Shown here: in pieces, positions 1 through 18,836 of the stretch
Layout of the letters: every line of letters begins with the position of its first letter
Numbering within the stretch: the first letter of the stretch is position 1
IMG/VR virus record: IMGVR_UViG_3300022925_000015
Strand: one strand, 5' to 3'
Origin: an uncultured virus (IMG/VR IMGVR_UViG_3300022925_000015)
Taxonomy: Duplodnaviria; Heunggongvirae; Uroviricota; Caudoviricetes
DNA length: 20,000 nt
Notes under the pieces: model-generated
Told to the model about the DNA's origin: nothing
Seen by the model: only the letters and a program-made list of their open reading frames with translations
Databases searched by the model: none
Made by a program: the position numbers and the translations under genes

Positions 1-103
1 TAACATTGTGGCCAGCAGACTTTAGAACTTTAGGAAACTCAGTTTTCCATTGTTTTGTGTAACGTGTTTCTACTGCTTCTAAGTCAACTAACCAAATGTT
101 CAT
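1..103 (-). CDS. 5' part of a gene running off the window edge; probable glycosyltransferase
   Basis: Not in the ORF track. ATG at 103 follows AAAAGGAAATAACA (SD). Frame reads MNIWLVDLEAVETRYTKQWKTEFPKVLKSAGHNV, open to the edge. The N-terminal beta-strand/helix/GHxV pattern resembles GT-B glycosyltransferases I recall from large phages. Only 34 aa are visible. Confidence 0.55.
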   Translation of the reverse strand, partial: MNIWLVDLEAVETRYTKQWKTEFPKVLKSAGHNV

Positions 104-105
104 TG

Positions 106-306
106 TTATTTCCTTTTGTTAAAATTTCTACCACGCTTCTTATAGTGGTTATTGTTCCGCTTGGTAAATGCACGCCACTCTCTACTAGAGTTGTTGTACA
201 AATTTTTCTCATCGAATGGCAACCATTCAAAACGACAAAAATCACGGAACTTATCAAGGTCATTGAACACCTTGACAATCTTGGGATTGTCTGCAAAATA
301 AGACAC
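106..306 (-). CDS. hypothetical protein, 66 aa, basic C-terminus
   Basis: GTG start with AAAAGGAG SD upstream (AGGAG at 313-317); packed between neighbouring genes. Confidence 0.8.
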   Translation of the reverse strand: MSYFADNPKIVKVFNDLDKFRDFCRFEWLPFDEKNLYNNSSREWRAFTKRNNNHYKKRGRNFNKRK

Positions 307-320
307 TGTAATCTCCTTTT

Positions 321-761
321 CTATCTTGCATACTCAATGTGGGCACCGTTTTCTCCATCTTCACTTACGTCAATATGGACTTCACGGCCTGGATGTTTTG
401 CAATAATCTGTTCGTATAGATCATCGCATATCATTTCACAACTTTTATAATCTAGTTCAAGGGTTTTCTCCTCATACAGTTTTTCTAACCAACGTTTAAA
501 TTGAATGAACTCAATATCTCTGTCGTTGTGTGTTACAGTGATACCGACCTTAAAGTGGAATATGTGTCTATGGGGATATCCCAAAAACGAAACATCATAT
601 TCATCACCTGTTGCAAGTGCTGGATCTTCCAGTGCCGCAGGATATTTGTGGATACCTTCCTTTCGGAACGTTACCCAAATCATTCTTTTTGCTGTAGACA
701 TAATACGTCTATGATTGTCTTCTGCCATTGCTTCTTTCATCATTGTATCAGTTATACCCAT
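321..761 (-). CDS. dpdL: QueD-like T-fold protein, DpdL-type (putative 7-carboxy-7-deazaguanine decarboxylase)
   Basis: QueD-like layout (EGIH...LGYPHRHIFHFKV...DIEFIQFK...KSCEMI). It has LxxxHRHxF where canonical QueD has CxxxHGH. Lies next to a DpdA-like gene. The start could be the later MMKEAM. Confidence 0.7.
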   Translation of the reverse strand: MGITDTMMKEAMAEDNHRRIMSTAKRMIWVTFRKEGIHKYPAALEDPALATGDEYDVSFLGYPHRHIFHFKVGITVTHNDRDIEFIQFKRWLEKLYEEKTLELDYKSCEMICDDLYEQIIAKHPGREVHIDVSEDGENGAHIEYAR

Positions 762-779
762 AGTATACTACCTTTTGTT

Positions 780-1310
780 CTAGTTGTCATCCACTATTTT
801 ATCGTTTTTATATTCTTCCCAATTAGTGAATCTTTCTTCATCCATTAGTGTGTGCAATCTATGACACCATACACCTGGATTTGTTGCTTGGAAATCTTTA
901 TCATCAATCTTAATCATTGTGTTGTAGTTCCATTGTTTTATATAAGGAATTGGAACACGTAGTTGCGGAATAAAATTTTCGTATTCAATTAATGGTCCAT
1001 CTAAAAACATTTCTGCTGCATTAATTGGAATATCTAAACTACATAGATATCCTTCTTGTAAAAATGGTTGAATCATCTTCTCCCATTCTTCATAATAATC
1101 TGCACTATGGTTTTCAGTAGCAGGATCAAAACTATGATTAGCACCAAAGAAAATATGCTTGTGAGTATCTAAATGTCCTCTAATAATTTGTACATCGTTA
1201 ATGCCTGTGACAAATAATGTAAGTTTCAAATGTGCAGGAGTCTTTTCAACTTCAAAGCCTGAAAAGAATCTAACATTGTCTGCTTTGCCATTTTCGTAAT
1301 CACGGTTCAT
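780..1310 (-). CDS. hypothetical protein in DNA-modification cluster (176 aa)
   Basis: Long ORF with an ATGA overlap with the upstream stop; globular alpha/beta-like sequence (HIFFGANHSF, IKIDDKDF, NPGVWCH). No family recognised. Confidence 0.85.
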   Translation of the reverse strand: MNRDYENGKADNVRFFSGFEVEKTPAHLKLTLFVTGINDVQIIRGHLDTHKHIFFGANHSFDPATENHSADYYEEWEKMIQPFLQEGYLCSLDIPINAAEMFLDGPLIEYENFIPQLRVPIPYIKQWNYNTMIKIDDKDFQATNPGVWCHRLHTLMDEERFTNWEEYKNDKIVDDN

Positions 1311-1486
1311 ACTGTATGTTCCTTTTCAATCCTTTCAATTTGATCTTTAAGTTTAAGACGTTTCTTTTTCATTTCACTTAATTCTTCGTCTTTAAAATTA
1401 CCAGTCTTTTCCATTTTGTCTACTTGTGTATTTAGGAATTTGTGTGATTCTTTTAACCAAAGTAAACGTTTTGTATAGTCGGACAT
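1307..1486 (-). CDS. small coiled-coil protein, DUF465/YdcH-like (59 aa)
   Basis: Start reassigned to ATG 1486 with AGGAGG SD (1493-1498). Sequence LKESHKFLNTQVDKME...LSEMKKKRLKLKDQI matches the DUF465 pattern (H..L...I; KK.KL.LKD.I). Confidence 0.75.
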   Translation of the reverse strand: MSDYTKRLLWLKESHKFLNTQVDKMEKTGNFKDEELSEMKKKRLKLKDQIERIEKEHTV

Positions 1487-1487
1487 A

Positions 1488-3035
1488 TTACGCCTCCTGT
1501 AATTGTTCCTCAAGTTTATCAAGTTCAGTATCTTCTCTATCATCAGTCCACGGAACTTCTTCTTCACCGTTCTCGTCAACTTCTACAAACAAACTATCAG
1601 AAATGTTAGTTACACCACCACGCAGTCTAGCACCTTCAAGATCTTTTAGGAAACTGTCTGCTTCTTTAATCATTGCAAACGCTGCCTCTTTAGTTGGCTG
1701 CCCGAATAGTTCTTTTACAAATCTATCAAAGTATAAGATGTTACGTGGAACCCATTCAGAGTATTCATCACTCTTATCTGCTTCTTTTACTTTACGCCAT
1801 TGTCTCCAATCAGGCTGTGCTTTTGCAATCTCAATATCCATAAGTGTATTTGCACGTTGTACTGCTTTAATATGACATTCTACATTGTGCGACATCATAA
1901 GTGCATACGCAAAACTATCCCAACTTGTTTTGCCTTCTTTACCGATCTTATTCAACATACCCGGAGCATAATGACAGATGTCAGCAATTGTCATACGTCT
2001 TCCAACTTCACTTTCAAATGGAAACTGTATATCGTGACGTTGAGCAAGTGCTTTATTGTCCGGAGCCTTGTCCATAATCACTGACCAACGTTTGCTTGAA
2101 TGTTGTGCATTTGTATATACAAGTCCGTGTGCTGTTGCAATAAACGGAGATGCACAATCAAAACTAATAGTAAAGTTAGGATTAATTTGCTCTCTAATAA
2201 TTCTTTGAATACTTGTTAAGTAACACGACCAATCTAGTTGTGCTGTACCTAAGAAGTGCATCCAGTCTTTACCTTCAAGCATACCATCAAACTTCATTGT
2301 AATCAATCTACGTAGTGTAATTGGCATCTTGCACATATTAGCACCACCCATTGCCCAACCTTCAGCAGCCTTATCACCATATACCGCAGGATCGGAGAAT
2401 TCTTTTACACCTTCGTACCACCTTTCAGCAGTATCCCAGTTTGAACCCTGCAATACATTTAAGAACTTAGTTTGACCTAAACGATTATCAAGGAAGTATT
2501 TGTTATTGTAACGAGTCTTATCAAGACAGTCTTCAAATGTTTTTAGTCCTGTTTTAGGAGAGTGAATATGATCACAAGCCCAAGTTGGAACATCAAGCAT
2601 CATCGACCAGTCAGCAGTTAGTTCTAACCATTCTAAGATACGTTGCCTTACTTTAGTTGCTTCAGCACCTTCAAAATTTAACCAATCAAACTTAATAACA
2701 CCTTTACCAATCTGATATCCGCCGGAGTCTCCAAGTATCATCGTCTTGTCTCGATTTCTATCTTGGATCATACTTTCTTGTACTAGACTTTTTTGCAAAT
2801 CAAGTTGTGCGTGACCTGCACTATAAAGTCCATACTTGTATGTAAAGTACCCTGCTTCTTCATTCAAAAAGTTCATACCTTCAATACCTCTATCGAATCC
2901 TTTAGGAATACGATCTTGCGGAACAAATTCTTCTAGTCTTTGTTTCGCAACATAGGTACTAAAGAAAGAACTAATCGCAGGAAGAAACACTGCGTAATCT
3001 TTCTGTAGTGGTGATAAGTTTGTTTGATCTTTCAT
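1488..3035 (-). CDS. dpdA: TGT-fold guanine transglycosylase, DpdA-like (possibly DpdA3 subfamily)
   Basis: TGT motifs ILGDSGGYQ, MMLDVP, NVLQG, WAMGG, MHFLG and ISFDCASP. No CxCxxC zinc site typical of tRNA TGT. Acidic C-terminal tail. Phage replication-gene context favours a DNA substrate over tRNA. Confidence 0.8.
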   Translation of the reverse strand: MKDQTNLSPLQKDYAVFLPAISSFFSTYVAKQRLEEFVPQDRIPKGFDRGIEGMNFLNEEAGYFTYKYGLYSAGHAQLDLQKSLVQESMIQDRNRDKTMILGDSGGYQIGKGVIKFDWLNFEGAEATKVRQRILEWLELTADWSMMLDVPTWACDHIHSPKTGLKTFEDCLDKTRYNNKYFLDNRLGQTKFLNVLQGSNWDTAERWYEGVKEFSDPAVYGDKAAEGWAMGGANMCKMPITLRRLITMKFDGMLEGKDWMHFLGTAQLDWSCYLTSIQRIIREQINPNFTISFDCASPFIATAHGLVYTNAQHSSKRWSVIMDKAPDNKALAQRHDIQFPFESEVGRRMTIADICHYAPGMLNKIGKEGKTSWDSFAYALMMSHNVECHIKAVQRANTLMDIEIAKAQPDWRQWRKVKEADKSDEYSEWVPRNILYFDRFVKELFGQPTKEAAFAMIKEADSFLKDLEGARLRGGVTNISDSLFVEVDENGEEEVPWTDDREDTELDKLEEQLQEA

Positions 3036-3773
3036 TTAAGCCGCCTGTGCTGGAATAATATATTTGTATTTTGCTAATCCGCTATCTAGTGTAATTTGCA
3101 CTGCACCTTCATTGGAAATGCTCATCTTGGTATTGTTAACATCTGCAATCTTAAGGATTGCTAGAATACTTGCTACAGGCCAAGTCCAGCCTCTGTCAAG
3201 TGTACCAGTTACATCAGTTGCAAAAATAAATTCGCCACCGTGTGTACTTGCATCACCAAAGATAAACTTTAAGTTACCATCTTCAGTTTTTGCTAAGAAT
3301 GTTGGATGCTCTGGATTAGCCCCTGCTTGGAAATTAAAACGCTGTACGCCTGCAAGTGTAGGAACAACTTCTACGTCCCAGTTTACACCACGAAACTTTA
3401 CAGTTTTCATTTTCTCATTAATAATTTCTTGATTCATAAAACGATAGTCGTTTTTAAAATCACCATCTGCATTTTCAAAGTGAATACCTACAGGAATATT
3501 TGCACCATTACGTTCTGCGTTTGTAATAGTAATCTTTGCGTCCTTTTGATATTCAGTACCGTCAATCAAGTATTTCAACTTGTTTAATTGTGGCATACCA
3601 AATGTGCCAATCATATCTGCATATGGGTTATGTGTATCTGCTTCCATAATAACTGATCTATCATCAGCCATTGAAAACATCGATGTGCCTGCTTCTTCGC
3701 CAGTCACTTTCACAGTAGTTAGAAAACCTAAGTTCTGTGTATGACTAACAATATCTTGTAAGATGTCTTTCAT
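3036..3773 (-). CDS. probable DNA polymerase sliding clamp (gp45/PCNA-like)
   Basis: 245 aa with a two-domain beta/alpha pattern ending in a beta-strand (KYKYIIPA), directly downstream of PolB; SD GAGGAG. Confidence 0.7.
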   Translation of the reverse strand: MKDILQDIVSHTQNLGFLTTVKVTGEEAGTSMFSMADDRSVIMEADTHNPYADMIGTFGMPQLNKLKYLIDGTEYQKDAKITITNAERNGANIPVGIHFENADGDFKNDYRFMNQEIINEKMKTVKFRGVNWDVEVVPTLAGVQRFNFQAGANPEHPTFLAKTEDGNLKFIFGDASTHGGEFIFATDVTGTLDRGWTWPVASILAILKIADVNNTKMSISNEGAVQITLDSGLAKYKYIIPAQAA

Positions 3774-3795
3774 TGAATTCTCCTCTGTAACTTAC

Positions 3796-3824
3796 ATTAT
3801 ATTTAGGTTTGATTGAAAGTGCAA
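3796..3824 (-). promoter_or_regulatory. sigma70-type promoter for clamp/dpdA genes, overlapping a TAAATA motif
   Basis: Minus strand TTGCAC-17 bp-TATAAT with an A-tract upstream; TAAATA at 3800-3805 overlaps the -10 box. Confidence 0.55.
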
Positions 3825-3832
3825 GAATTTTT

Positions 3833-6496
3833 TTACTCAAAATCAAACAAATTGTTAAAATTATTATCGGAACGGGTTGAACTTATATCCCACTCCAATA
3901 CACCAATCAAGTTCTTGAGTTTTTCATCAATCACTGTATTTTCCATTGTTGCGTCATCAAATGGCAAATCTTTGAACCATTCAGGCAAACGCAACTCATC
4001 CACAGGATATGCAATACTTGTATAGCCCATTGGATTGTCCTTTACCTTACAGACAATAACTTTTGCACCATCTGTAATATTCATAGAGTATTTGTCTCCG
4101 TTCATACGTTTAAGCGTCATCCAATTGATACTTGCTCTTACGTGTCCAGGCATATTCACTTTGCCTGCTTTCTTTTCCTTTGCTTCATACTCTGTGATCT
4201 TGTTTGCACGTTTTGGAGAACCTTTCTCCCAACCTGGACGTGACTTAAATTCTGTTCTAAATTCTGTAATGTAATCTAGTACTGCTTCTTTCTCTTTACC
4301 GGACAGTACCATTTCTAACACATTGCTTAAGAAATCTTGTATAACAACTGGAGTATCTGAACGTTTAAGATCAAGACCCATTGCTTTAATTTTACCTGGC
4401 TTGCCTTCTGTATCTGTTCTAAAGCCTTCAATGTCATAGTAAAGAACTGCATAACGTTTCTTTGTAATGAACAAGCCTTTACTTGCAACAATCTCTCTAG
4501 CAGCAGCAATAACTTCTGAACGCTTCTTAGGGCAGTGAAATGCATCACTCATAAACTTCGGAAACGTAGAGTTAGTATTCTCACCAATTGTATCATACAA
4601 CTCCATAACACTATCTTTTGTCCAAGGAATAGCACCTGCTTCAATATCTTTCTTTAGTGTACTATATGCGCTGAAGTATGTAGAATCAGTATCACCATAT
4701 ACAATTGCTTTACCTGTATGATCATAAGTGCCAGTAATTATCTCATTGATCTTTGCAGCCATATGCTGTGTAATGGATCTGCCTGTAAGTGTAACACTTT
4801 GACCAATCCTATTGTCGAAAAACCTACAACCAGGATTAAGAATAGCACCATACAAACTGTTAAGTAGAATCTTCTTAACCAACTGCCTTTTTGCCCAGTA
4901 TTCTTCTTCAATTTTGTTCCCTGCATTTTGACTTTCTTTCTGCTTCGCCTGCATTTCTTTACGTTCTTTATACCAACGTGTTAGCAGTCCTGGAATGACT
5001 CCTTCTTTTTCATATGTAAAGATTGTGCCGTTAGCACTAAGCATCCAAGGCTGGTTGCTTTCATAAATTAAGTCATAAACTTGTGCGGCACTAATTTTAT
5101 CTTCTCCGCCACGTTCCCAGTCAATAGTAATTTCTCTACTAACTTCTTTATCCATTACACTTGAATATTCTACACTGCCAAACATACCTTCCCAAGCAGA
5201 AGCAAATGATTTGCCTTTTGCCATTTGTCCTTCAATATGTGCTTTAGTACCATCTTGTCGCAACTGTCCAACAACTGTTTCAGGACCCATATTCAATGCT
5301 CTAATAACAGATGGATACAGTGAATTCAAGTCAACACTACCTATCCATTCGTGAATACCTTTCTTAGGATATGCAACATAAGCACCTGCCGCAGGCTCAC
5401 TGCCTGGCTCACGTTTCACTCTGTTGGGAACAATCATTCCACGTCTGTGTGCTTCGTTGATAATACCTTGTTCTGTAACAGCAACAGCACCCATTGTTGT
5501 TTGTATAAGCACTGTATTTTCGTGTGCAATAGTATTTGCAAGATCAATAAACTTTAGTTTTTTATCTAGTTTGTCAAGTAGTGCAGTATCTTGTCTGTTG
5601 TATTCAATAAATGTTCTAAAGTCATTGTTATAAAGAGCATCAAGACTACCTTCATAAACAGTCTTTTTCTCGCCAATCTCTAGTTCACCAATAGCATCTA
5701 GTCTGTATGTATGTCGTTCTTCATAGTTATACTTTCTGTAAAGTTCTAAACTATCAACGTGTACACGCCCAATTAGATCATATGTAGTTGATTCTTTACC
5801 AAACTTTTCATATGTTCTTTTCTTAGGTTTTTGATCCCACAAACATAAACGTCTAGTATCATCTGCACTTAAAACTTTGATAATACGGTTAACAGTGTAA
5901 GGCATATCATAACCTTCACTGTTCCAGCCACTTAGTACGTCAGCATCTTGTATAAGATCTAAAAACGCATCAAGCATATCTGCTTCATTGTCATACAGTA
6001 TAGTATTAGGAATACCTTCAATTGCTTTATGTGCTTCTTCCATACTTAGAGTCTTTGGAGGAATCGCTAAACAAATTAGTTCATCCATCCACTGCAAGTG
6101 TACAGCAATTGATGTAATAGGCATAAATGCATCTTCTGGAGATGCATATCCACGCTCAGGATCAAAGTCAACCTCGATATCCCAAAACGCTACATTTAGT
6201 TTAGGAGCATCAACATTTAAGTAGTTGTCTTCTAAACATCGATAAATTGGATTTATATCGCTTTCATATAATTTTTTGTTTGAATGAATTGCAAGTTCTT
6301 TACGCAGTTCTTTAATATTCTTTGCGTTTACTCGCGACAGTGGTTCCCCGTAAATACTTTGATACTTACCTCTTTGGTCTGGGAAATAAAATATGTGTCT
6401 TGGATTGTATTCGTGGAATACACGTTTTCCGTCTTTTCGCTCGACAACTCTGATTGTGTCTTCACCGCGATCATAGAATGCATCTACGTAGCTCAT
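3833..6496 (-). CDS. family B DNA polymerase (T4 gp43-like) with 3'-5' exonuclease
   Basis: ExoI WDIEVD, ExoII GWNSEGYDMPY, ExoIII YNRQD; polymerase motifs SVDLNSLYPS, KKILLNSLYG, YGDTDS, KKRY; C-terminal clamp-binding-like peptide FNNLFDFE. Confidence 0.98.
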   Translation of the reverse strand: MSYVDAFYDRGEDTIRVVERKDGKRVFHEYNPRHIFYFPDQRGKYQSIYGEPLSRVNAKNIKELRKELAIHSNKKLYESDINPIYRCLEDNYLNVDAPKLNVAFWDIEVDFDPERGYASPEDAFMPITSIAVHLQWMDELICLAIPPKTLSMEEAHKAIEGIPNTILYDNEADMLDAFLDLIQDADVLSGWNSEGYDMPYTVNRIIKVLSADDTRRLCLWDQKPKKRTYEKFGKESTTYDLIGRVHVDSLELYRKYNYEERHTYRLDAIGELEIGEKKTVYEGSLDALYNNDFRTFIEYNRQDTALLDKLDKKLKFIDLANTIAHENTVLIQTTMGAVAVTEQGIINEAHRRGMIVPNRVKREPGSEPAAGAYVAYPKKGIHEWIGSVDLNSLYPSVIRALNMGPETVVGQLRQDGTKAHIEGQMAKGKSFASAWEGMFGSVEYSSVMDKEVSREITIDWERGGEDKISAAQVYDLIYESNQPWMLSANGTIFTYEKEGVIPGLLTRWYKERKEMQAKQKESQNAGNKIEEEYWAKRQLVKKILLNSLYGAILNPGCRFFDNRIGQSVTLTGRSITQHMAAKINEIITGTYDHTGKAIVYGDTDSTYFSAYSTLKKDIEAGAIPWTKDSVMELYDTIGENTNSTFPKFMSDAFHCPKKRSEVIAAAREIVASKGLFITKKRYAVLYYDIEGFRTDTEGKPGKIKAMGLDLKRSDTPVVIQDFLSNVLEMVLSGKEKEAVLDYITEFRTEFKSRPGWEKGSPKRANKITEYEAKEKKAGKVNMPGHVRASINWMTLKRMNGDKYSMNITDGAKVIVCKVKDNPMGYTSIAYPVDELRLPEWFKDLPFDDATMENTVIDEKLKNLIGVLEWDISSTRSDNNFNNLFDFE

Positions 6497-9790: not shown

Positions 9791-9971
9791 CTAATATATC
9801 CTTCATTACACGCGATGCTGTATTTGTAAAGAATCTTGGAGCAATACTGTGTACAATTAGTGCAGGTACTAAGCATTGCAGTTTTACAGCAGTCTTAAGT
9901 GCTTTAAGCATATGCTGTGTTCCAGTTTCTCCTACTTTCTCTAGGTGTAGTTTACATTGTTTACTAAACAT
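9771..9971 (-). CDS. DUF6356-like small protein
   Basis: Pattern HLEKVGET..QHM..A......L.....LIVHSIAPRFFTNTAS with three spaced His residues, recalled as DUF6356-like. Confidence 0.65.
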   Translation of the reverse strand: MFSKQCKLHLEKVGETGTQHMLKALKTAVKLQCLVPALIVHSIAPRFFTNTASRVMKDILDGRNRH

Positions 9972-11380
9972 TATTTCTTCTTCTTTCCGCTTTTCATATT
10001 AGCACACCAGTGGTACATCTTTGCACGTTCGCCTGATGCGTTCTTTGCTTTTTTACGTAATGATGTAACGGACCCGTTACAACTAGCACCTGAACGTTTT
10101 ACACGTCCTGGTCTGCTTTTGCCTTTTTTCTTACCATCTGCAAAGTTTTCTTCAATATGTTCTCTTATTAAATGATGGAAACTTTCTTCTATCTCTGCTT
10201 TTAGTTTTTTGGCAGTCCTTTCAAACTTGTGATCCTTATGCTTGAACCCTATGCCTCCGGCACTTTCCCACGCACTTATGTTTACACCATAATCGTCAAT
10301 TAGGATATTAGGTGTGCCGTCGGAGTTAGTAGCATACTTCGCCTTATCCTTTGTTATGATGACTTCGCTTGGCGGGAAGAAGTCTAAATTCTTTTTAATC
10401 CATTCACGCTTATGTGGTTCTGAATTAGGATCATTTGCTAATGGTGAACTTAGAATTTTGTAATCGCCTTTTACTTGTTTAATAATACCAAGTAAATTTT
10501 TAGCATTAGAAGTAAAAGGAATGTTTAACCAAAAATCCTTTTCGTCTCTAATTTTTTTAAGTGCTGGTTCAATTTCATCTTTACCTAGTTCGCGCCAATC
10601 TTTGCCAACTAGTCTTTTCCACTCGCCAAAAAAGTCTGCGAGTACTCCGTCCATATCTACATATATTTCTGACTTAGGATTAAGTCCTTGAAACATATCT
10701 TCATATGTTTTCTTTTTCTTTTTCTTAGGAAACAGTTTTTTAACATTCATATATTCGCCGCCTACAGGAACATCTGCGGTAGCATTTTGTTTTGTAACAA
10801 TACCAACGCCAGCGGCTTCTTCATACATAGATTCTGGAACATCATCACGCCAAGTTAAATCTTTTGGATCAGCAATAACTGCACGTATCTTATCTGCGTT
10901 TGCTTTTAGATGTGCAAAATATCTGTGATGTCCGTCAACAATTAGTAACTTACCTTCGTGTGGCACAATCACAATAGGTTTGATCTTATCGCCTGCTTTG
11001 ATCCTATCAACAAACTTCATCATATTGTCGTGATTGTCTTTAGCATCCATTTTATCAGCAGGTTCAAATGGTGTAAGTTTAGATACGTCTATTACTTTTA
11101 CTGTTTGCTTTTTGTAATAATCATCATCAACATCAGCGCCTTGATACTCGGGATTAGTCCACATAGTTATTTCTGCGCCTTCTGTTTTCTTTTTAGTTGG
11201 TAATCCTTTGTGCTTTGTTTTAGCAAAGTCTTTTGCATCTGCCTTTGAAATATCTTTAGCAACTTCGCCTGCTTCGCCAGACTTTTTCATATCGCCCTTT
11301 TGCATTGCTCTTACAATACCAAAGAACTGTTGTTGCTTTTTGCTAACTGCTTTTTCAGATATGATTTCGTATGCTCTCAT
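9971..11380 (-). CDS. multidomain protein: DUF3008-like + ParB/Srx-like + HAD 5'(3')-deoxyribonucleotidase-like + basic C-terminal module
   Basis: AVSKKQQQFFG...KDFAKTKHKGLP (DUF3008-like); PIVIV...LIVDGHHRYFA (ParB N-terminal motif); IYVDMDGVLADF, ILSSP, K, ILIDD (HAD motifs I-IV); tail SRPGRVKRSGASC...HWCANMK. Confidence 0.85.
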   Translation of the reverse strand: MRAYEIISEKAVSKKQQQFFGIVRAMQKGDMKKSGEAGEVAKDISKADAKDFAKTKHKGLPTKKKTEGAEITMWTNPEYQGADVDDDYYKKQTVKVIDVSKLTPFEPADKMDAKDNHDNMMKFVDRIKAGDKIKPIVIVPHEGKLLIVDGHHRYFAHLKANADKIRAVIADPKDLTWRDDVPESMYEEAAGVGIVTKQNATADVPVGGEYMNVKKLFPKKKKKKTYEDMFQGLNPKSEIYVDMDGVLADFFGEWKRLVGKDWRELGKDEIEPALKKIRDEKDFWLNIPFTSNAKNLLGIIKQVKGDYKILSSPLANDPNSEPHKREWIKKNLDFFPPSEVIITKDKAKYATNSDGTPNILIDDYGVNISAWESAGGIGFKHKDHKFERTAKKLKAEIEESFHHLIREHIEENFADGKKKGKSRPGRVKRSGASCNGSVTSLRKKAKNASGERAKMYHWCANMKSGKKKK

Positions 11381-14469: not shown

Positions 14470-15150
14470 TTTAATAATGTGTTTATATACCTTTCCGATC
14501 ATACCACTTTCACGTAATCTTAACATCATAAGAGTGTGATCATCTTGTACATATATGTATCTTCTATCCCAGTTTTGTCTAGTTTCTATAAGCCACTTAC
14601 GTATACTAGAAGTAAAAGTAATATTAGGAACTTGTAGTTCTAGCCAATCACTTAGTTTTACACGATCTGCGTGATTGCCTAGTTTGTGTGGTAGCAAATA
14701 AACTTTATACAAATATTTATTATGCGGCAAGCGTTTAACAAATACGCTGTTTTTACTATTAAGAAGGTCTTGTTCTGTACCTGGAGCAGGCTCAAATCTA
14801 CGCCATACTATTTTATCATCAGCAAATTCTGCACCTATAGCATCGTATATGCTACGGTCATTTGTATAGACGTCTATGTTATTACCCTCTACACGTAGTT
14901 GTATTTTGTCTTTATTTGCTTGTACTATTAGACCAAGTTTAATCCAATCTGCTGCTGAATACAAAAAGTCATTTGTATTCTTTTCTGCCCAGTAGTTGTC
15001 TTTAGGTTGACTGCCACCTTGTGCTACAGAAATAATATCGTTAATACTCCACACACGTAATGCATAAGCACCGTGTAGAATACAACTTATTTTATAAACG
15101 TATTTGTTGTAAAACTTACGCTTTGTTTTCTTCGGCTTCGGCAGCGGCAT
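14467..15150 (-). CDS. hypothetical protein (227 aa)
   Basis: Long ORF with AAGGAAG SD, overlapping the end of clpA; YNKYVYKI and HNKYLYKV hint at an internal duplication. Confidence 0.8.
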   Translation of the reverse strand: MPLPKPKKTKRKFYNKYVYKISCILHGAYALRVWSINDIISVAQGGSQPKDNYWAEKNTNDFLYSAADWIKLGLIVQANKDKIQLRVEGNNIDVYTNDRSIYDAIGAEFADDKIVWRRFEPAPGTEQDLLNSKNSVFVKRLPHNKYLYKVYLLPHKLGNHADRVKLSDWLELQVPNITFTSSIRKWLIETRQNWDRRYIYVQDDHTLMMLRLRESGMIGKVYKHIIK

Positions 15151-17467
15151 CTTGTTCTTCCTTCAATTTCGCTTTAAGGGCTTTCTTCTCTGCCTTTGTT
15201 AATGGTTTAGGTAAAGGTGTAATATCAAATGTAATTTTTTTACTTTCAATACCTAACTGTACTTTACCACCCTCAACCAAGTCACCAAATAATACTTTTT
15301 TACTAAGTGGTGTTTTAATCTCAGTATCAATTACTCTACCTAAAGGTCTTGCACCTAATTTAGGACTGTATCCTTTATCAGCAAGATAACTTACTACTGC
15401 TGGACTTGCATTGATAATAATATTTTTATCTTTTAGTTGACCGTTTAATTCTTTTAAGAACTTATGAACAATATTACTTACAACAGACTTATCAAGTTTA
15501 TCAAACTTAATAGTGCCATCTAGTCTATTTCTAAATTCTGGAGCAAAGAACTTTTTAGCAGCCTTAGTATCTTCACCTGATTTTTCTTGACTATCAAAAC
15601 CAATTGCATTAGATTCATTATCACTTGCACCTAAGTTTGAAGTCATAATCAAAATAGTGTTACGTCCATCTGCTTGTTTACCGTTCGATCCTGTAACAAA
15701 TCCGTTATCCATAAACTGTAACAAAATGTTTGATACATCTTTATGTGACTTTTCTATTTCATCTAAAAGTAAAATACAGTTAGGATTTTCTTGCAGTTTA
15801 GTAATAAGTTGTCCTGCGTTTTCTTCATAGCCAACGTATCCTGGAGGAGCACCAATTAATCTTGCAACGCTATGCTTTTCTTGATATTCACTCATATCAA
15901 AACGTACTAGTGTAGTACCCATCTTTTCTGCAAGTTGTCTTGCTGTTTCAGTTTTACCACAACCTGTTGGACCTAAAAACAAAAACGAACCAATAGGTTT
16001 GTTAGGTGATTTCAATCCTGCTTGTGCAACAAAAATTTTATCAAGCAATGTGTCTACTGCTGCATCTTGTCCGAATACAACTGATTTCATATTCTTTTCT
16101 AAGCCTTCTAAATTCTTGCTTTCTTTCTGTGCTACAGTTTCTAAAGGCATTTTAATCATTTTAGATACTTCATAACTTATTTGCTCAATATCAACAATTT
16201 GTTGTACACCTTCTGTAGCAGCATCATCAACTAGTCTATATCTTGCTGATGCACAGTCAATAACATCAATTGCCTTATCTGGTAATTTCTTGTCTGCCAT
16301 ATATTTTACAGAAAGTTTTACAGCGTGATCAACTGCTTCGTCTGTAATTACAACATTATGATGTGCTTCATAATACTTACGTAGGCCTTTTATAATTTTA
16401 ATTGTAGTATCTGCACTAGGCTCATCAATAGTCACACGTTGGAATCTTCTCATTAGTGCTCTATCTTTTTCAAAGTACTTGCGATATTCTTCCCAAGTAG
16501 TTGAAGCAATAACTTTCATTCCGCTTTTGCTTAGTGCTGGCTTTAACATATTTGCTAAATCATTAGACTTATCTGTTCCTCCTGCGCCTGCACCACTCAT
16601 CATATGTGCTTCGTCAATGAACAATATAATTTTGCCTTTGCGTTCTAATGCTTTTAAAATTGCTTTAATACGTTCTTCAAAGTCTCCTCTATATTTAGAA
16701 CCTGCTACAAGTGAACTAATATCTAAACTAAAAACTTCGTGATCGTGTAAAAATTTAGGAGTTTTCTTTTCAAAGATTTTACGTGCTATACCTTCAGCAA
16801 TAGCAGTTTTACCTACTCCTGGGTCACCTACAATTAATACATTAGACTTTTGGCGCCTTGCTAATACAAGGGCAATATCTTCAATTTCGTTATCTCTTCC
16901 TATTACAGGATCAATAACTTTTTGTTTTGCTTTTAATGAAAGGTTAGTACAAAATTGATTAATAATTTTATCAACTTGATCATTACTTAATGGTTGTTGA
17001 TCTCCACCATCTAAATCAAAGTCTGAATCCCCGTCAAAGTGTTCTTGGAAATGTTGTACAAACTTTTCTTTAATAATTCCGCCCTTTGTTAAGAAGTAAA
17101 ATGCAAACGAATTCTTTTCACCAAGTATGCTTATAATAACGTCGGCCACTTCCATTTGATTACGACCGCTAAACAGTACTTGTGTAAAACAACGATTAAG
17201 GACACGCTCTACTGCGTGTGTTTTCTTTGGAATAGTACCCGGCTCTAAAGTTTCAATAGTCTTTAGATTTTCTTTCAAATAGTGATCAATATTATGCTTG
17301 ACGTAATCAACATCAGCACCATATGCTTTTAATCCTTCTGCTGATTCTTTATCTGCAACAATAGCCAACAACAAGTGTTCGATAGTAAGATACTTGTGAC
17401 CTGCTTTTTTTGTTACTTCGATTGCTGAATCAAAAATACGTTGTAACTGTTTACTTGGTTCTATCAT
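15116..17467 (-). CDS. clpA: ATP-dependent Clp protease ATP-binding subunit ClpA
   Basis: Clp-N domain (TIEHLLLA), two AAA+ modules (GDPGVGKT/LFIDEAH; GPTGCGKT/LLLDEIEK), GAPPGYVG pore loop, IGF ClpP-docking loop, no ClpB middle domain. Confidence 0.95.
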   Translation of the reverse strand: MIEPSKQLQRIFDSAIEVTKKAGHKYLTIEHLLLAIVADKESAEGLKAYGADVDYVKHNIDHYLKENLKTIETLEPGTIPKKTHAVERVLNRCFTQVLFSGRNQMEVADVIISILGEKNSFAFYFLTKGGIIKEKFVQHFQEHFDGDSDFDLDGGDQQPLSNDQVDKIINQFCTNLSLKAKQKVIDPVIGRDNEIEDIALVLARRQKSNVLIVGDPGVGKTAIAEGIARKIFEKKTPKFLHDHEVFSLDISSLVAGSKYRGDFEERIKAILKALERKGKIILFIDEAHMMSGAGAGGTDKSNDLANMLKPALSKSGMKVIASTTWEEYRKYFEKDRALMRRFQRVTIDEPSADTTIKIIKGLRKYYEAHHNVVITDEAVDHAVKLSVKYMADKKLPDKAIDVIDCASARYRLVDDAATEGVQQIVDIEQISYEVSKMIKMPLETVAQKESKNLEGLEKNMKSVVFGQDAAVDTLLDKIFVAQAGLKSPNKPIGSFLFLGPTGCGKTETARQLAEKMGTTLVRFDMSEYQEKHSVARLIGAPPGYVGYEENAGQLITKLQENPNCILLLDEIEKSHKDVSNILLQFMDNGFVTGSNGKQADGRNTILIMTSNLGASDNESNAIGFDSQEKSGEDTKAAKKFFAPEFRNRLDGTIKFDKLDKSVVSNIVHKFLKELNGQLKDKNIIINASPAVVSYLADKGYSPKLGARPLGRVIDTEIKTPLSKKVLFGDLVEGGKVQLGIESKKITFDITPLPKPLTKAEKKALKAKLKEEQDAAAEAEENKA

Positions 17468-17999
17468 TTTTTAATCTTTTCCTTAGTTTCTTTAATGCTA
17501 ATTGTAACTTCAACCTACCTACTTTGTCAACAAAACAAATGCCATTTAGGTGATCTAATTCGTGTTGAAAACATTTTGCAAGGTATCCATCTATCTTGGC
17601 TTCTTTTGTATCTCCCTTAGAATTCTGATATTGTGCAACAATCCACTTAGGACGACTGATGCTTAGAAACAGTCCTGGGAAACTTAAACAACCTTCTTTA
17701 TCTAAAACTAGCTCATCACTTGTTTCTAATATTACAGGATTAAACAGTGCGAATGGTTGTGGAAAGTTTGGAATATTTAAACTACCCATAACAAACACAC
17801 GTTTTGTAATATCTATTTGATTGGCCGCTAATCCAATTCCGTTATTGTTTAACATAAAATTACACATATCATATTCAAGATGTTCAGGATCATACTTTTC
17901 TGTAGCAAAATCCCACACCTTACTTTCTTGATTAAGTGCTTGATGAAGTCCTAGTTTGTAATCTAAGTCTAATTTAAATTTAGTATCTGTTTCTGACAT
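17451..17999 (-). CDS. def: peptide deformylase
   Basis: All three PDF motifs: GIGLAANQ, EGCLS, QHELDHLNG. Confidence 0.95.
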   Translation of the reverse strand: MSETDTKFKLDLDYKLGLHQALNQESKVWDFATEKYDPEHLEYDMCNFMLNNNGIGLAANQIDITKRVFVMGSLNIPNFPQPFALFNPVILETSDELVLDKEGCLSFPGLFLSISRPKWIVAQYQNSKGDTKEAKIDGYLAKCFQHELDHLNGICFVDKVGRLKLQLALKKLRKRLKNDRTK

Positions 18000-18801
18000 C
18001 TTTTATTTTTTTTATATCCTCTGGTGTTAATGTTTTAGGTGTTCTACCTTTTACTTTAATTAAAAGATTACCAATTTGTTTTGTCCTTACATTTGGCAAT
18101 CCTTCTCCTTTACAACTTAGAACAGTGTCTGGTTGTGTACCAGGAGGAATATTAATTTCAAGGCTTTTACCGTTCAGTGTGTTAACAGTTGCTTTAGTTC
18201 CAATAACTAAGTCCAACACATCAACATTAACGTTACATTGTATATTATCCCCGTAGCGTTCGAAGCGTGGGTGATTACGAATCCGTATATGTACAAATAA
18301 ATCTCCAGGCGGCAATGCATTGTGTACATTATCTCCCATACCTCTAAATCTTATTTGTTGTCTTTCTTCTACGCCGGGCGGTATGTTGACTGTTACTACT
18401 TTAGTTCTTCCATTTGACATACCTATTTCAATCTGTAAGGATTTTCCATTTAGTACATCTTCGAGTGTAATATCTACAGCAACGTTGATTGGATTATTTT
18501 GTGGTCTACGGGCTCTACCCATTCCAAAAAAGTTTTCAAATATATCATCAAAACCACCTTGGCCAAAGTCGCCTGATCTAAAATTGAAACCTTGATTAGG
18601 ATCAGTAGTTCCAAACTGATCATACATTTGCTTTTTTTGGGTATCGGAAAGTGTTTGATACGCTTCGTTTATTTCTTTAAACTTTGTATCGTCACCACCT
18701 GTACGGTCTGGGTGGTGTGCCATAGACTGTTTTTTATAAGCCTTTTTTATATCTTCTTGGCTTGCATTTCTGCCAACGCCTAATGTCGAATAATAGTCCA
18801 T
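17980..18801 (-). CDS. dnaJ: DnaJ-family co-chaperone, class B (no zinc finger, CbpA-like)
   Basis: MDYYSTLGV J-domain with HPD, G/F-rich linker, C-terminal domains (GDLFV, GEGLP); no CxxCxGxG repeats; start set at ATG 18801. Confidence 0.93.
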   Translation of the reverse strand: MDYYSTLGVGRNASQEDIKKAYKKQSMAHHPDRTGGDDTKFKEINEAYQTLSDTQKKQMYDQFGTTDPNQGFNFRSGDFGQGGFDDIFENFFGMGRARRPQNNPINVAVDITLEDVLNGKSLQIEIGMSNGRTKVVTVNIPPGVEERQQIRFRGMGDNVHNALPPGDLFVHIRIRNHPRFERYGDNIQCNVNVDVLDLVIGTKATVNTLNGKSLEINIPPGTQPDTVLSCKGEGLPNVRTKQIGNLLIKVKGRTPKTLTPEDIKKIKDVRNRY

Positions 18802-18836
18802 AATATTATAAGGATCCTCCTTAAGCAATCCTATAG

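Follow-up and report, generated by a model that had tools for sequence, protein, structure and literature searches.

The uncultured virus IMGVR_UViG_3300022925_000015 (Caudoviricetes) is represented here by a stretch of 20,000 nucleotides, hereafter the window, whose first 3,035 positions encode a candidate DNA guanine transglycosylase, a paralogue of QueD and the beginning of a probable glycosyltransferase (GT). DpdA enzymes exchange 7-deazaguanines into DNA, and FolE, QueD and QueE together make 7-carboxy-7-deazaguanine (CDG), as established in queuosine biochemistry. The presence of a GT gene among genes of this kind raises the question whether the virus only replaces guanine in its DNA or additionally decorates the inserted base. 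Considered as a whole, the locus is best explained as a QueC-less system for deazaguanine modification of DNA with a GT as partner, an explanation to which we assign a probability of about 75%. The core, a QueC-less DpdA3/DpdL system, is of a published kind and already catalogued for Pseudomonas phage PA5oct; the unpublished part is the GT. Judged from its gene content, the predicted product of the core system is 2'-deoxy-7-deazaguanosine (dDG).

The transglycosylase, DpdL and the QueC-less gene set

The 515-residue protein of the locus matched nothing in Pfam, PHROGs, NCBIfam or PADLOC, and searches of PDB sequences with the single sequence or with a 63-sequence profile returned no tRNA-guanine transglycosylase (TGT). 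An AlphaFold2 model based on the 63-sequence alignment (mean pLDDT 92.1, pTM 0.91) produced 183 Foldseek matches at E ≤ 0.001, with TGT entries throughout among the 50 matches listed and the Z. mobilis TGT at the top (E 5.9e-8, probability 1.00). VIA-align superposed 302 residues on the TGT of T. maritima (Z 19.3, rmsd 4.4), and the TIM-barrel core of the TGT fold spans approximately residues 8–438, followed by a helical and acidic C-terminal extension. In hhalign comparisons, the family aligned with E. coli Tgt (probability 85%, E 6.2e-6) and more convincingly with DpdA of Xanthomonas phage X1 (probability 96%). The former alignment pairs D103 (in GDSGGYQ), D148 and D293 with D89, D143 and D264, which we take to be the catalytic and substrate aspartates of the E. 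coli enzyme; in the 63 sequences, D103 and D293 do not vary and D148 is conserved to 90% or more. None of the seven cysteines falls in a CxCxxC or CxxC pattern and the family alignment contains no cysteine column conserved to 90% or more, indicating that the zinc site of tRNA-specific TGTs is absent. The protein thus has in common with bacterial Tgt (PF01702) the TIM barrel, the three aspartates and the motif DSGG[YF]Q, but is remote from it in sequence and differs by the missing Cys3His zinc subdomain, the extra C-terminal helical/acidic region and the context of phage DNA replication genes. Aligned over 98% of its length, it shares 40.5% of its residues with PA5oct QCG76197.1, which is listed as DpdA3 in Supplementary Data S1 of PMC10516641. 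These comparisons support its assignment as a DpdA3-type transglycosylase candidate, for which insertion of the base into DNA is predicted. The family comprises 7637 proteins at E ≤ 0.001 among 8000 candidates scored (889 representatives of 50% clusters) and is highly represented in metagenomes from marine and salt-marsh sites.

The QueD paralogue, a protein of 146 residues, contains FLGYPHRHIFHF, and its sequence LGYPHRHIF is an exact match to LxxxHRHxF, the signature that in DpdL replaces the CxxxHGH of QueD (PMC10516641). Leucine thereby takes the place of the catalytic cysteine of QueD. The protein is 59% identical to PA5oct QCG76199.1 and 54% identical to YP_009609725.1 of phage ACP17, both of which are classed as DpdL (PMC10516641), and 35% identical to CGPG_00067 of the Cellulophaga phage phiST. 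PA5oct DpdL has HFH where the window's DpdL has HRH. No PF01242 match was obtained with the 146-residue protein, and a three-sequence DpdL profile aligned with ACP17 QueD at a probability of 12.6% in hhalign. Relatives of the protein start near residue 21–26. The original prediction, which was made from the letters alone, had described a DpdA-like enzyme of TGT fold lacking the zinc site and a DpdL-like QueD paralogue with LxxxHRHxF; both descriptions and both assignments are borne out by the structural matches, the cysteine analysis, the motif and the identities to the PA5oct proteins.

The same prediction had placed folE, queD and queE outside the window, and two of these genes are indeed found beyond its edge. 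The virus contig G001 (62,975 bases) matches the window at 4535 of 4535 compared bases and reaches 52 kb beyond position 1. On the same strand it encodes, in this order, the GT, FolE, three small open reading frames (ORFs), an HhH-GPD protein, a cupin, a phosphoribosyltransferase (PRTase), a HIT protein, a QueE-like enzyme and a 5'-3' exonuclease. FolE directly follows the GT gene (Pfam E 1.1e-36), and the QueE-like radical SAM enzyme is encoded approximately 5 kb beyond the window edge (phrog_2076, E 1.1e-55). A search of G001 for folE, queD, queE and queC therefore recovered the first and the third, while queD and queC remained without a match. A true PTPS/QueD is located elsewhere in the 238-kb relative G002. 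QueC family matches were also missing from three of the four larger relatives (G002–G004). In the fourth, G005 (L089), a weak QueC-family match (G005:C1:52672-52893, E 1.1e-6) covers only profile positions 1–74 and lies in a 316-residue ORF, which may be another PP-loop ATPase rather than QueC. In Xanthomonas phage X1, a PP-loop protein of the PAPS reductase family is encoded between folE and the GT gene (L091:2843-3376), and a QueC-like amidation or activation step is possible in that lineage.

The jumbo phage from which the window derives has PA5oct, Sinorhizobium phage Phosso and Vibrio phage 2.275.O as relatives, and near-identical sequence was present in salt-marsh, seawater and marine metagenome runs from 18 studies. 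The closest described system is that of PA5oct (Wroclawvirus), for which Supplementary Data S1 of PMC10516641 (NAR 2023) lists DpdA3, DpdL, FolE, QueD and QueE, with no QueC in that set. PA5oct shares with the present locus the order of PolB, structural protein and DpdA3 genes, followed by the GT and DpdL genes, as well as a nearby QueE-like gene and PRTase gene and the absence of QueC; identities amount to 40% for DpdA3, 46% for the GT and 59% for DpdL. The arrangement differs in that here X176, a 176-residue protein matching no known family, is encoded between dpdA3 and dpdL and the GT after dpdL, whereas in PA5oct the GT gene lies between dpdA3 and dpdL. Unlike in PA5oct, folE is also inside the cluster. 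The dDG system of phiST consists of QueD, QueE, FolE, a MazG-like protein, DpdL and DpdA3, and dDG fully replaces dG in this phage (PMC10516641). The phiST system is likewise QueC-less, contains DpdL and a TGT-like DpdA3 and adjoins a polymerase block, but its DpdA3 has 259 residues compared to 515 here, and phiST lacks both the GT and X176.

The probable glycosyltransferase and its constant neighbours

The gene at the window edge was originally regarded as a probable glycosyltransferase on the strength of its first codons, and this view withstood comparison of the complete 346-residue protein and its relatives. The clusters nearest to it in the ESM Atlas are named 'Glycosyl transferase family 1', and PF00534 was matched, below the cut-off, by seven of 28 aligned relatives (best E 2.5e-4). 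The homologue in X1 (25% identity, tblastn E 4e-17) matches PF00534 with 45.5 bits, above the cut-off of 26.4 (E 8e-12), and PF00534 matches at E 2.8e-5 to 2e-3 were obtained with all five examined divergent GTs encoded at the same position in related loci. The protein had no PHROGs or NCBIfam match of its own, none of the four proteins searched in PADLOC gave a match, and the GT profile produced only chance-level rows against PDB sequences, with the glycosyltransferase WlaC at E 0.49. In 28 sequences, two of them bacterial, E254 and E262 (E-x7-E) and an R-x-x-P-E-K stretch are invariant. We take E-x7-E to be the motif of the GT-B (GT4-like) C-terminal domain, and the invariant glutamate pair together with R-x-x-P-E-K suggests that the GT is catalytically active. 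These sequence features make a GT-B glycosyltransferase the probable product of the edge gene. The homologues in PA5oct (gp167, 46% identity) and ACP17 (gp124, 38% identity) are both encoded between dpdA and dpdL. Complex prediction for DpdA3 (residues 1–470) and the GT (score 0.00) speaks neither for nor against binding.

In three related phage loci (L060:10646-13305, L071:5989-8144 and L080:5584-7741), a divergent GT of 388–403 residues with 20–23% identity replaces the usual one and is directly followed by a gene for an NAD-dependent sugar epimerase/dehydratase (Pfam E down to 1.6e-54). A pyridine-nucleotide disulphide oxidoreductase gene adjoins dpdL in the last of these loci.

The gene neighbourhood of the GT was compared in environmental loci, phage records and prokaryotic genomes. 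Among 80 environmental loci found through DpdL, in which genes were sought by tblastn at E ≤ 1e-5 and many of which are shortened by contig ends, DpdA3 was present in 78, X176 in 70, FolE in 64, the GT and a 66-residue protein in 62 each, the PRTase in 47 and QueE in 43. When the assessment was restricted to the 62 loci extending 2.5 kb or more to either side of dpdL (matches at E ≤ 1e-4), 49 contained the GT and 52 X176 within 2.5 kb of dpdL, and 44 contained both. A relative of the GT was found in 22 and a relative of DpdL in 28 of 50,697 phage records. The 17 records with both belong to five lineages (Phosso, the PA5oct group, ACP17, X1/BUDD and BCSR5), and in all five the distance between the two genes is about 3 kb or less. 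The DpdA2 of ACP17, which belongs to another subfamily, matches the 515-residue enzyme at E 0.002 only.

In prokaryotes, searching one genome of each species with the GT profile yielded 35 loci, 30 of which had a match of at least 250 residues. A DpdA3-like gene was located within 3 kb of the GT gene in 24 of these 30, whereas no more than 16 encoded DpdL at any place in the locus and no more than 10 FolE, indicating that the constant partner of the GT is the transglycosylase rather than DpdL or the genes for base synthesis. Linkage between the GT and DpdL was observed in 14 of the 30. Six loci resemble phage contigs in metagenome-assembled genomes; the other 24 are mostly from alphaproteobacteria and have a DpdA3-like neighbour in 20 cases. 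Judged from these neighbourhoods, the GT is a functional partner of the transglycosylase.

The gene directly preceding the GT in 17 of the 24 non-phage loci is of the YhhQ type and Vut_1-like; the two copies that were scanned matched Vut_1 at E 3.4e-5 and 1.7e-4, short of the cut-off. In alphaproteobacteria (loci L102–L120), the YhhQ/Vut_1-like, GT and DpdA3-like genes form a cassette without DpdL, FolE and QueE, as in Shimia ponticola (L107:7492-12318) and Pelagibacterium mangrovi (L103:6089-9035), and a conserved 585-residue protein is also encoded in nine of these loci. The DpdA3-like protein of Shimia ponticola is 29% identical to the 515-residue enzyme (E 2e-34) and has kept the motifs GDSGGFQ and SFD; the cassette of this species adjoins Lamassu genes (LmuA, E 8.5e-114; LmuB, E 4e-163) and an integrase gene. 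With its transporter-like gene, GT and DpdA3-like gene, the bacterial cassette may be a DNA-marking system that uses an imported deazapurine, and possibly a new kind of self-marking.

Proposed pathway and competing explanations

We propose that in this marine jumbo phage, which resembles PA5oct (Wroclawvirus), the locus supplies those steps of a QueC-less 7-deazaguanine pathway by which the base is inserted into DNA. According to the gene content, FolE, QueD (presumably encoded elsewhere in the genome) and QueE would convert GTP to CDG, which DpdL, as a presumed T-fold paralogue of QueD, would convert to 7-deazaguanine. After replication, the DpdA3-type enzyme would swap guanine in the phage DNA for the deazapurine and thereby protect the DNA against restriction, and the xanthine/guanine-type PRTase would most likely recycle the excised guanine. 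Finally, the GT might add a sugar to the inserted deazaguanine, with the exocyclic N2 as the most likely acceptor. We put this forward tentatively as the most likely role of the GT and rate its chances somewhat below even. Since the GT also occurs with DpdA3-like genes in loci without DpdL, its acceptor should be common to several deazaguanines, which points to the exocyclic N2, the sole nucleophile common to the bases that could be inserted by the different host systems. The conserved linkage of the GT across phages and bacteria makes a glycosylated base more plausible. Stated more broadly, and with chances likewise somewhat below even, glycosylated deazaguanine could be present in the DNA of PA5oct-, ACP17-, X1- and Phosso-like phages and in the alphaproteobacterial islands, with the sugar most plausibly on N2.

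Glycosylated pyrimidines are classic constituents of phage DNA, and the T4 DNA glucosyltransferases are GT-B enzymes of a phage that add sugar to a modified DNA base, namely 5-hydroxymethylcytosine; no sequence similarity to them was noticed, nor was one looked for. Neither a glycosylated purine or deazapurine in DNA nor a link between a glycosyltransferase and DNA deazaguanines was described in the literature searched. If the proposed last step is true, the phage DNA would carry a sugar-bearing purine of a kind absent from this literature. A functional parallel is HuiG of huimycin biosynthesis, described as transferring N-acetylglucosamine onto the 2-amino group of a 7-deazapurine and, like the GT, encoded with FolE/QueD/QueE-type genes (PMC7439116). 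HuiG differs in being a secondary-metabolite enzyme of an actinomycete with the free O-methylated preQ0 base as substrate and is likened to the GT by function alone. PA5oct, ACP17, X1 and Phosso carry the GT, so that the question of the sugar is directly answerable in cultured phages. PA5oct DNA is reported to resist five restriction enzymes, which the authors of that work read as modification of G, and the association of the GT and X176 with the locus bears on what END-type nucleases sense in this DNA.

Several points weigh against the explanation preferred here or against parts of it. The 346-residue GT protein itself has no Pfam match at E ≤ 0.01, and hhalign of the 515-residue family with phiST DpdA3 gave a weak probability of 57.6%. 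No PTPS/QueD family match was obtained on G001, the 63 kb of the phage that were covered. At C7, 7-deazaguanine offers no obvious acceptor for a sugar. Thirteen of the 62 assessable loci had no GT near dpdL, and five of these also lacked X176. The function of DpdL as CDG decarboxylase is a published proposal only, and production of DpdL and DpdA of phiST and ACP17 in E. coli did not lead to dDG (PMC10516641). By the account of the same source, dDG is proven only in the phages phiST, phi19:2 and phi13:1. We found neither the GT nor X176 in these three phages, from which it follows that neither gene is needed for dDG.

The last two points about the GT also favor a simpler explanation, according to which the locus is a plain dDG system as in phiST and the GT and X176 serve another substrate, such as a nucleotide sugar, a protein or the host envelope, and merely lie within a block of replication genes. 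The position of the PA5oct homologue of X176 approximately 28 kb from the cluster is in line with such independence. However, the GT is nearly confined to genomes with DpdL or DpdA (17 of the 22 phage records with the GT also have DpdL), its adjacency persists across DpdA subfamilies as divergent as the DpdA2 of ACP17, and in bacterial islands it adjoins DpdA3-like genes where phage replication genes are absent. We therefore consider a plain dDG system with a bystander GT unlikely, while giving it serious weight.

Alternatively, the GT-B protein could be an accessory subunit that the transglycosylase needs for insertion, without any decoration of the base. Such a subunit would resemble DpdB, which is needed for insertion by bacterial DpdA. 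The tighter linkage of the GT to the DpdA3-like gene (24 of 30 loci within 3 kb) than to DpdL (14 of 30) would fit this role, and DpdA3 alone was not workable in E. coli (PMC10516641). Against such a role, E254, E262 and R-x-x-P-E-K are invariant in 28 sequences, which suggests catalysis, and the divergent GT is followed by genes for NDP-sugar epimerases/dehydratases in three of the five loci examined. Moreover, DpdA3 of the phiST type works in a phage that lacks the GT, and altogether a purely accessory role appears improbable.

The PRTase raises the question whether the deazapurine might instead enter DNA at the nucleotide level, in a tubercidin-like route in which the PRTase would join CDG or 7-deazaguanine to phosphoribosyl pyrophosphate, decarboxylation or other processing would lead to 7-deaza-dGTP and the phage polymerase would incorporate it, leaving DpdA3 a secondary role. 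The enzyme encoded on G001 is of the purine type (PF00156, E 5.5e-10; NCBIfam xanthine PRTase, E 3.3e-11, below the cut-off), is accompanied by a HIT protein and recurs in PA5oct (gp163) besides the 47 related loci, and QueC-less tubercidin clusters combine CDG, a PRTase and a decarboxylase (bioRxiv 10.64898/2026.04.15.718813). Against this, the ACP17, X1 and phiST loci have no PRTase, a transglycosylase with intact catalytic residues was kept in 78 of the 80 loci, and the pocket of DpdL accommodates only a base according to the supplementary text of PMC10516641. Recycling of guanine is a simpler reason for a guanine-type PRTase, and we regard incorporation by the polymerase as quite improbable. 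Finally, action of the TGT-fold enzyme on host or phage tRNA rather than DNA, to which its fold and catalytic aspartates would point, is very improbable, given that the zinc subdomain is absent, that the Pfam TGT model PF01702 was matched by only two of 63 relatives, and weakly, that the orthologue is classed as DpdA3 in print and that PA5oct DNA is reported to resist cleavage at G-containing sites.

X176, the small genes and the wider neighbourhood

Between the DpdA3 and DpdL genes, the original prediction had noted a protein without assignment, and X176 has kept this status: Pfam, PHROGs, NCBIfam and PADLOC contained no family that it matches, and neither the single sequence nor a profile matched a PDB sequence. 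It nevertheless has 4239 relatives at E ≤ 0.001, with conserved motifs that include HIFFGANHSF, FIPQ and KIDDKxF...NPGVW.H.LH. Its occurrence in isolated phages is restricted to 13 records, from PA5oct-like phages (42% identity in the PA5oct group; gp121 in PA5oct) and ACP17 (gp122, 30% identity, between folE and dpdA). The structure model (pLDDT 76.5, weak in the C-terminal third) has a conserved alpha/beta core. Foldseek of this model returned nothing from PDB at E ≤ 0.001, and the ESM Atlas yielded no usable feature match, its own model being poor. The best VIA alignment (Z 6.2, STAS/RsbS) is within the background range of the tool.

A resemblance to QueE was also considered. BFVD contained a QueE-like viral model at E 0.092, ranked behind the ACP17 orthologue of X176. 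VIA alignments with three solved QueE structures (Z 5.6, 5.3 and 4.8) are below a meaningful level, X176 lacks an Fe-S cysteine motif, and hhalign with the phage QueE family gave a probability of 0.2%. Motif matches to QueE detected by eye were dropped because they fitted two different registers, and the resemblance suggested by the models is a lead only. Kinship with the 'glycosylase' adjoining dpdL in Phosso and with CGPG_00066 of phiST was rejected on hhalign probabilities of 0.2% and 0.3%, respectively. Within this branch of DpdA3/DpdL systems, X176 is best explained as an accessory factor, either an enzyme or a binding protein, to which no chemistry can be assigned. The authors of PMC10516641 considered that other enzymes may be needed for the DpdL/DpdA product. 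X176 could be the missing factor behind the failed production with DpdL and DpdA in E. coli, and the association of the GT and X176 with the locus may explain why the published reconstitution did not succeed.

The tightly packed run seen originally at positions 1–3035 was confirmed, but the list of its genes was short by two small ones, and the run comprises six genes (Table 1), on the minus strand like all genes of the window. Their intergenic gaps are 1, -4, 18, 14 and 2 nucleotides, each start is preceded by a Shine-Dalgarno-like motif, and no gap separates the 515-residue gene from an upstream gene for 245 residues. No terminator-like sites were found at positions 1–3800, and a promoter scan found 23 promoter-like sites compared to 24.0 expected, which is chance level.

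Table 1. Genes encoded at positions 1–3035 of the window and the basis of their assignment.
Feature	Position	Strand	Basis or remark
DpdA3-type DNA guanine transglycosylase candidate, 515 residues	1488..3035	-	fold model, catalytic residues, PA5oct orthology
Small DUF465 protein, 59 residues from ATG at 1486	1307..1486	-	PF04325, E 3.7e-11
X176, 176 residues, between DpdA3 and DpdL genes, matching no known family	780..1310	-	
DpdL, QueD paralogue, 146 residues	321..761	-	LxxxHRHxF motif, phrog_17812 E 1.1e-34
66-residue protein with basic C-terminal tail, between DpdL and GT genes	106..306	-	GTG start, upstream AAAGGAG
First 34 residues of the 346-residue probable GT-B (GT4-like) glycosyltransferase	2..103	-	rest at L003:17167-18207 on G001

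The two small genes differ in their conservation. The DUF465 gene starts 1 nucleotide past the DpdA3 stop codon and overlaps the next gene by 4 nucleotides, and an identical 59-residue ORF is present on G001. It was found in only 11 of the 80 related loci and is thus not a conserved part of the module. The 66-residue protein had no match in Pfam or PHROGs and no similarity to PA5oct gp165; its gene is kept at the same position in 62 of the 80 loci.

Beyond the window edge, the interval between folE and queE on G001 (L003:13772-15851) encodes an EndoIII-like HhH-GPD protein of 141 residues, the cupin (phrog_4786), the xanthine/guanine-type PRTase and the HIT protein. Of the 80 related loci, 37 also encode the cupin, 36 the HIT protein and 16 the HhH-GPD protein. 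At the corresponding place, PA5oct encodes its PRTase, gp163, and gp164, a short protein resembling an epimerase. Approximately 10–18 kb from the window edge, G001 contains a divergent block on the plus strand (L003:216-8175) that encodes two twitch-domain radical SAM/SPASM proteins, both matching NF033640 above the cut-off (321 and 392 bits), together with an NDP-sugar dehydrogenase and four proteins matching no family.

On the other side of the cluster, a 245-residue protein (positions 3036–3773, phrog_12062) is encoded between PolB and dpdA3, and the same holds for 75 of the 80 related loci. In PA5oct, the corresponding gp170 carries the annotation of a virion structural protein, detected by electrospray ionization tandem mass spectrometry (ESI-MS/MS). 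The family B DNA polymerase (positions 3833–6496) is encoded by a single intact gene for 887 residues, and the gene in PA5oct (L001:1605-6831) is interrupted by a gene for a Hef-like homing endonuclease. In a 469-residue protein encoded at positions 9971–11380, a DUF3008-like N-terminus and a weak ParB-N-like segment are fused to a 5'-deoxyribonucleotidase of the NT5C type. In the bacterial Dpd system, DpdA is assisted by the ParB-like DpdB, which makes the ParB-N-like segment noteworthy. Further into the window, positions 15116–18828 hold a group of chaperone and proteostasis genes, which encode a ClpB-like double AAA+ protein (783 residues), a peptide deformylase (182 residues) and a DnaJ-type co-chaperone (282 residues).

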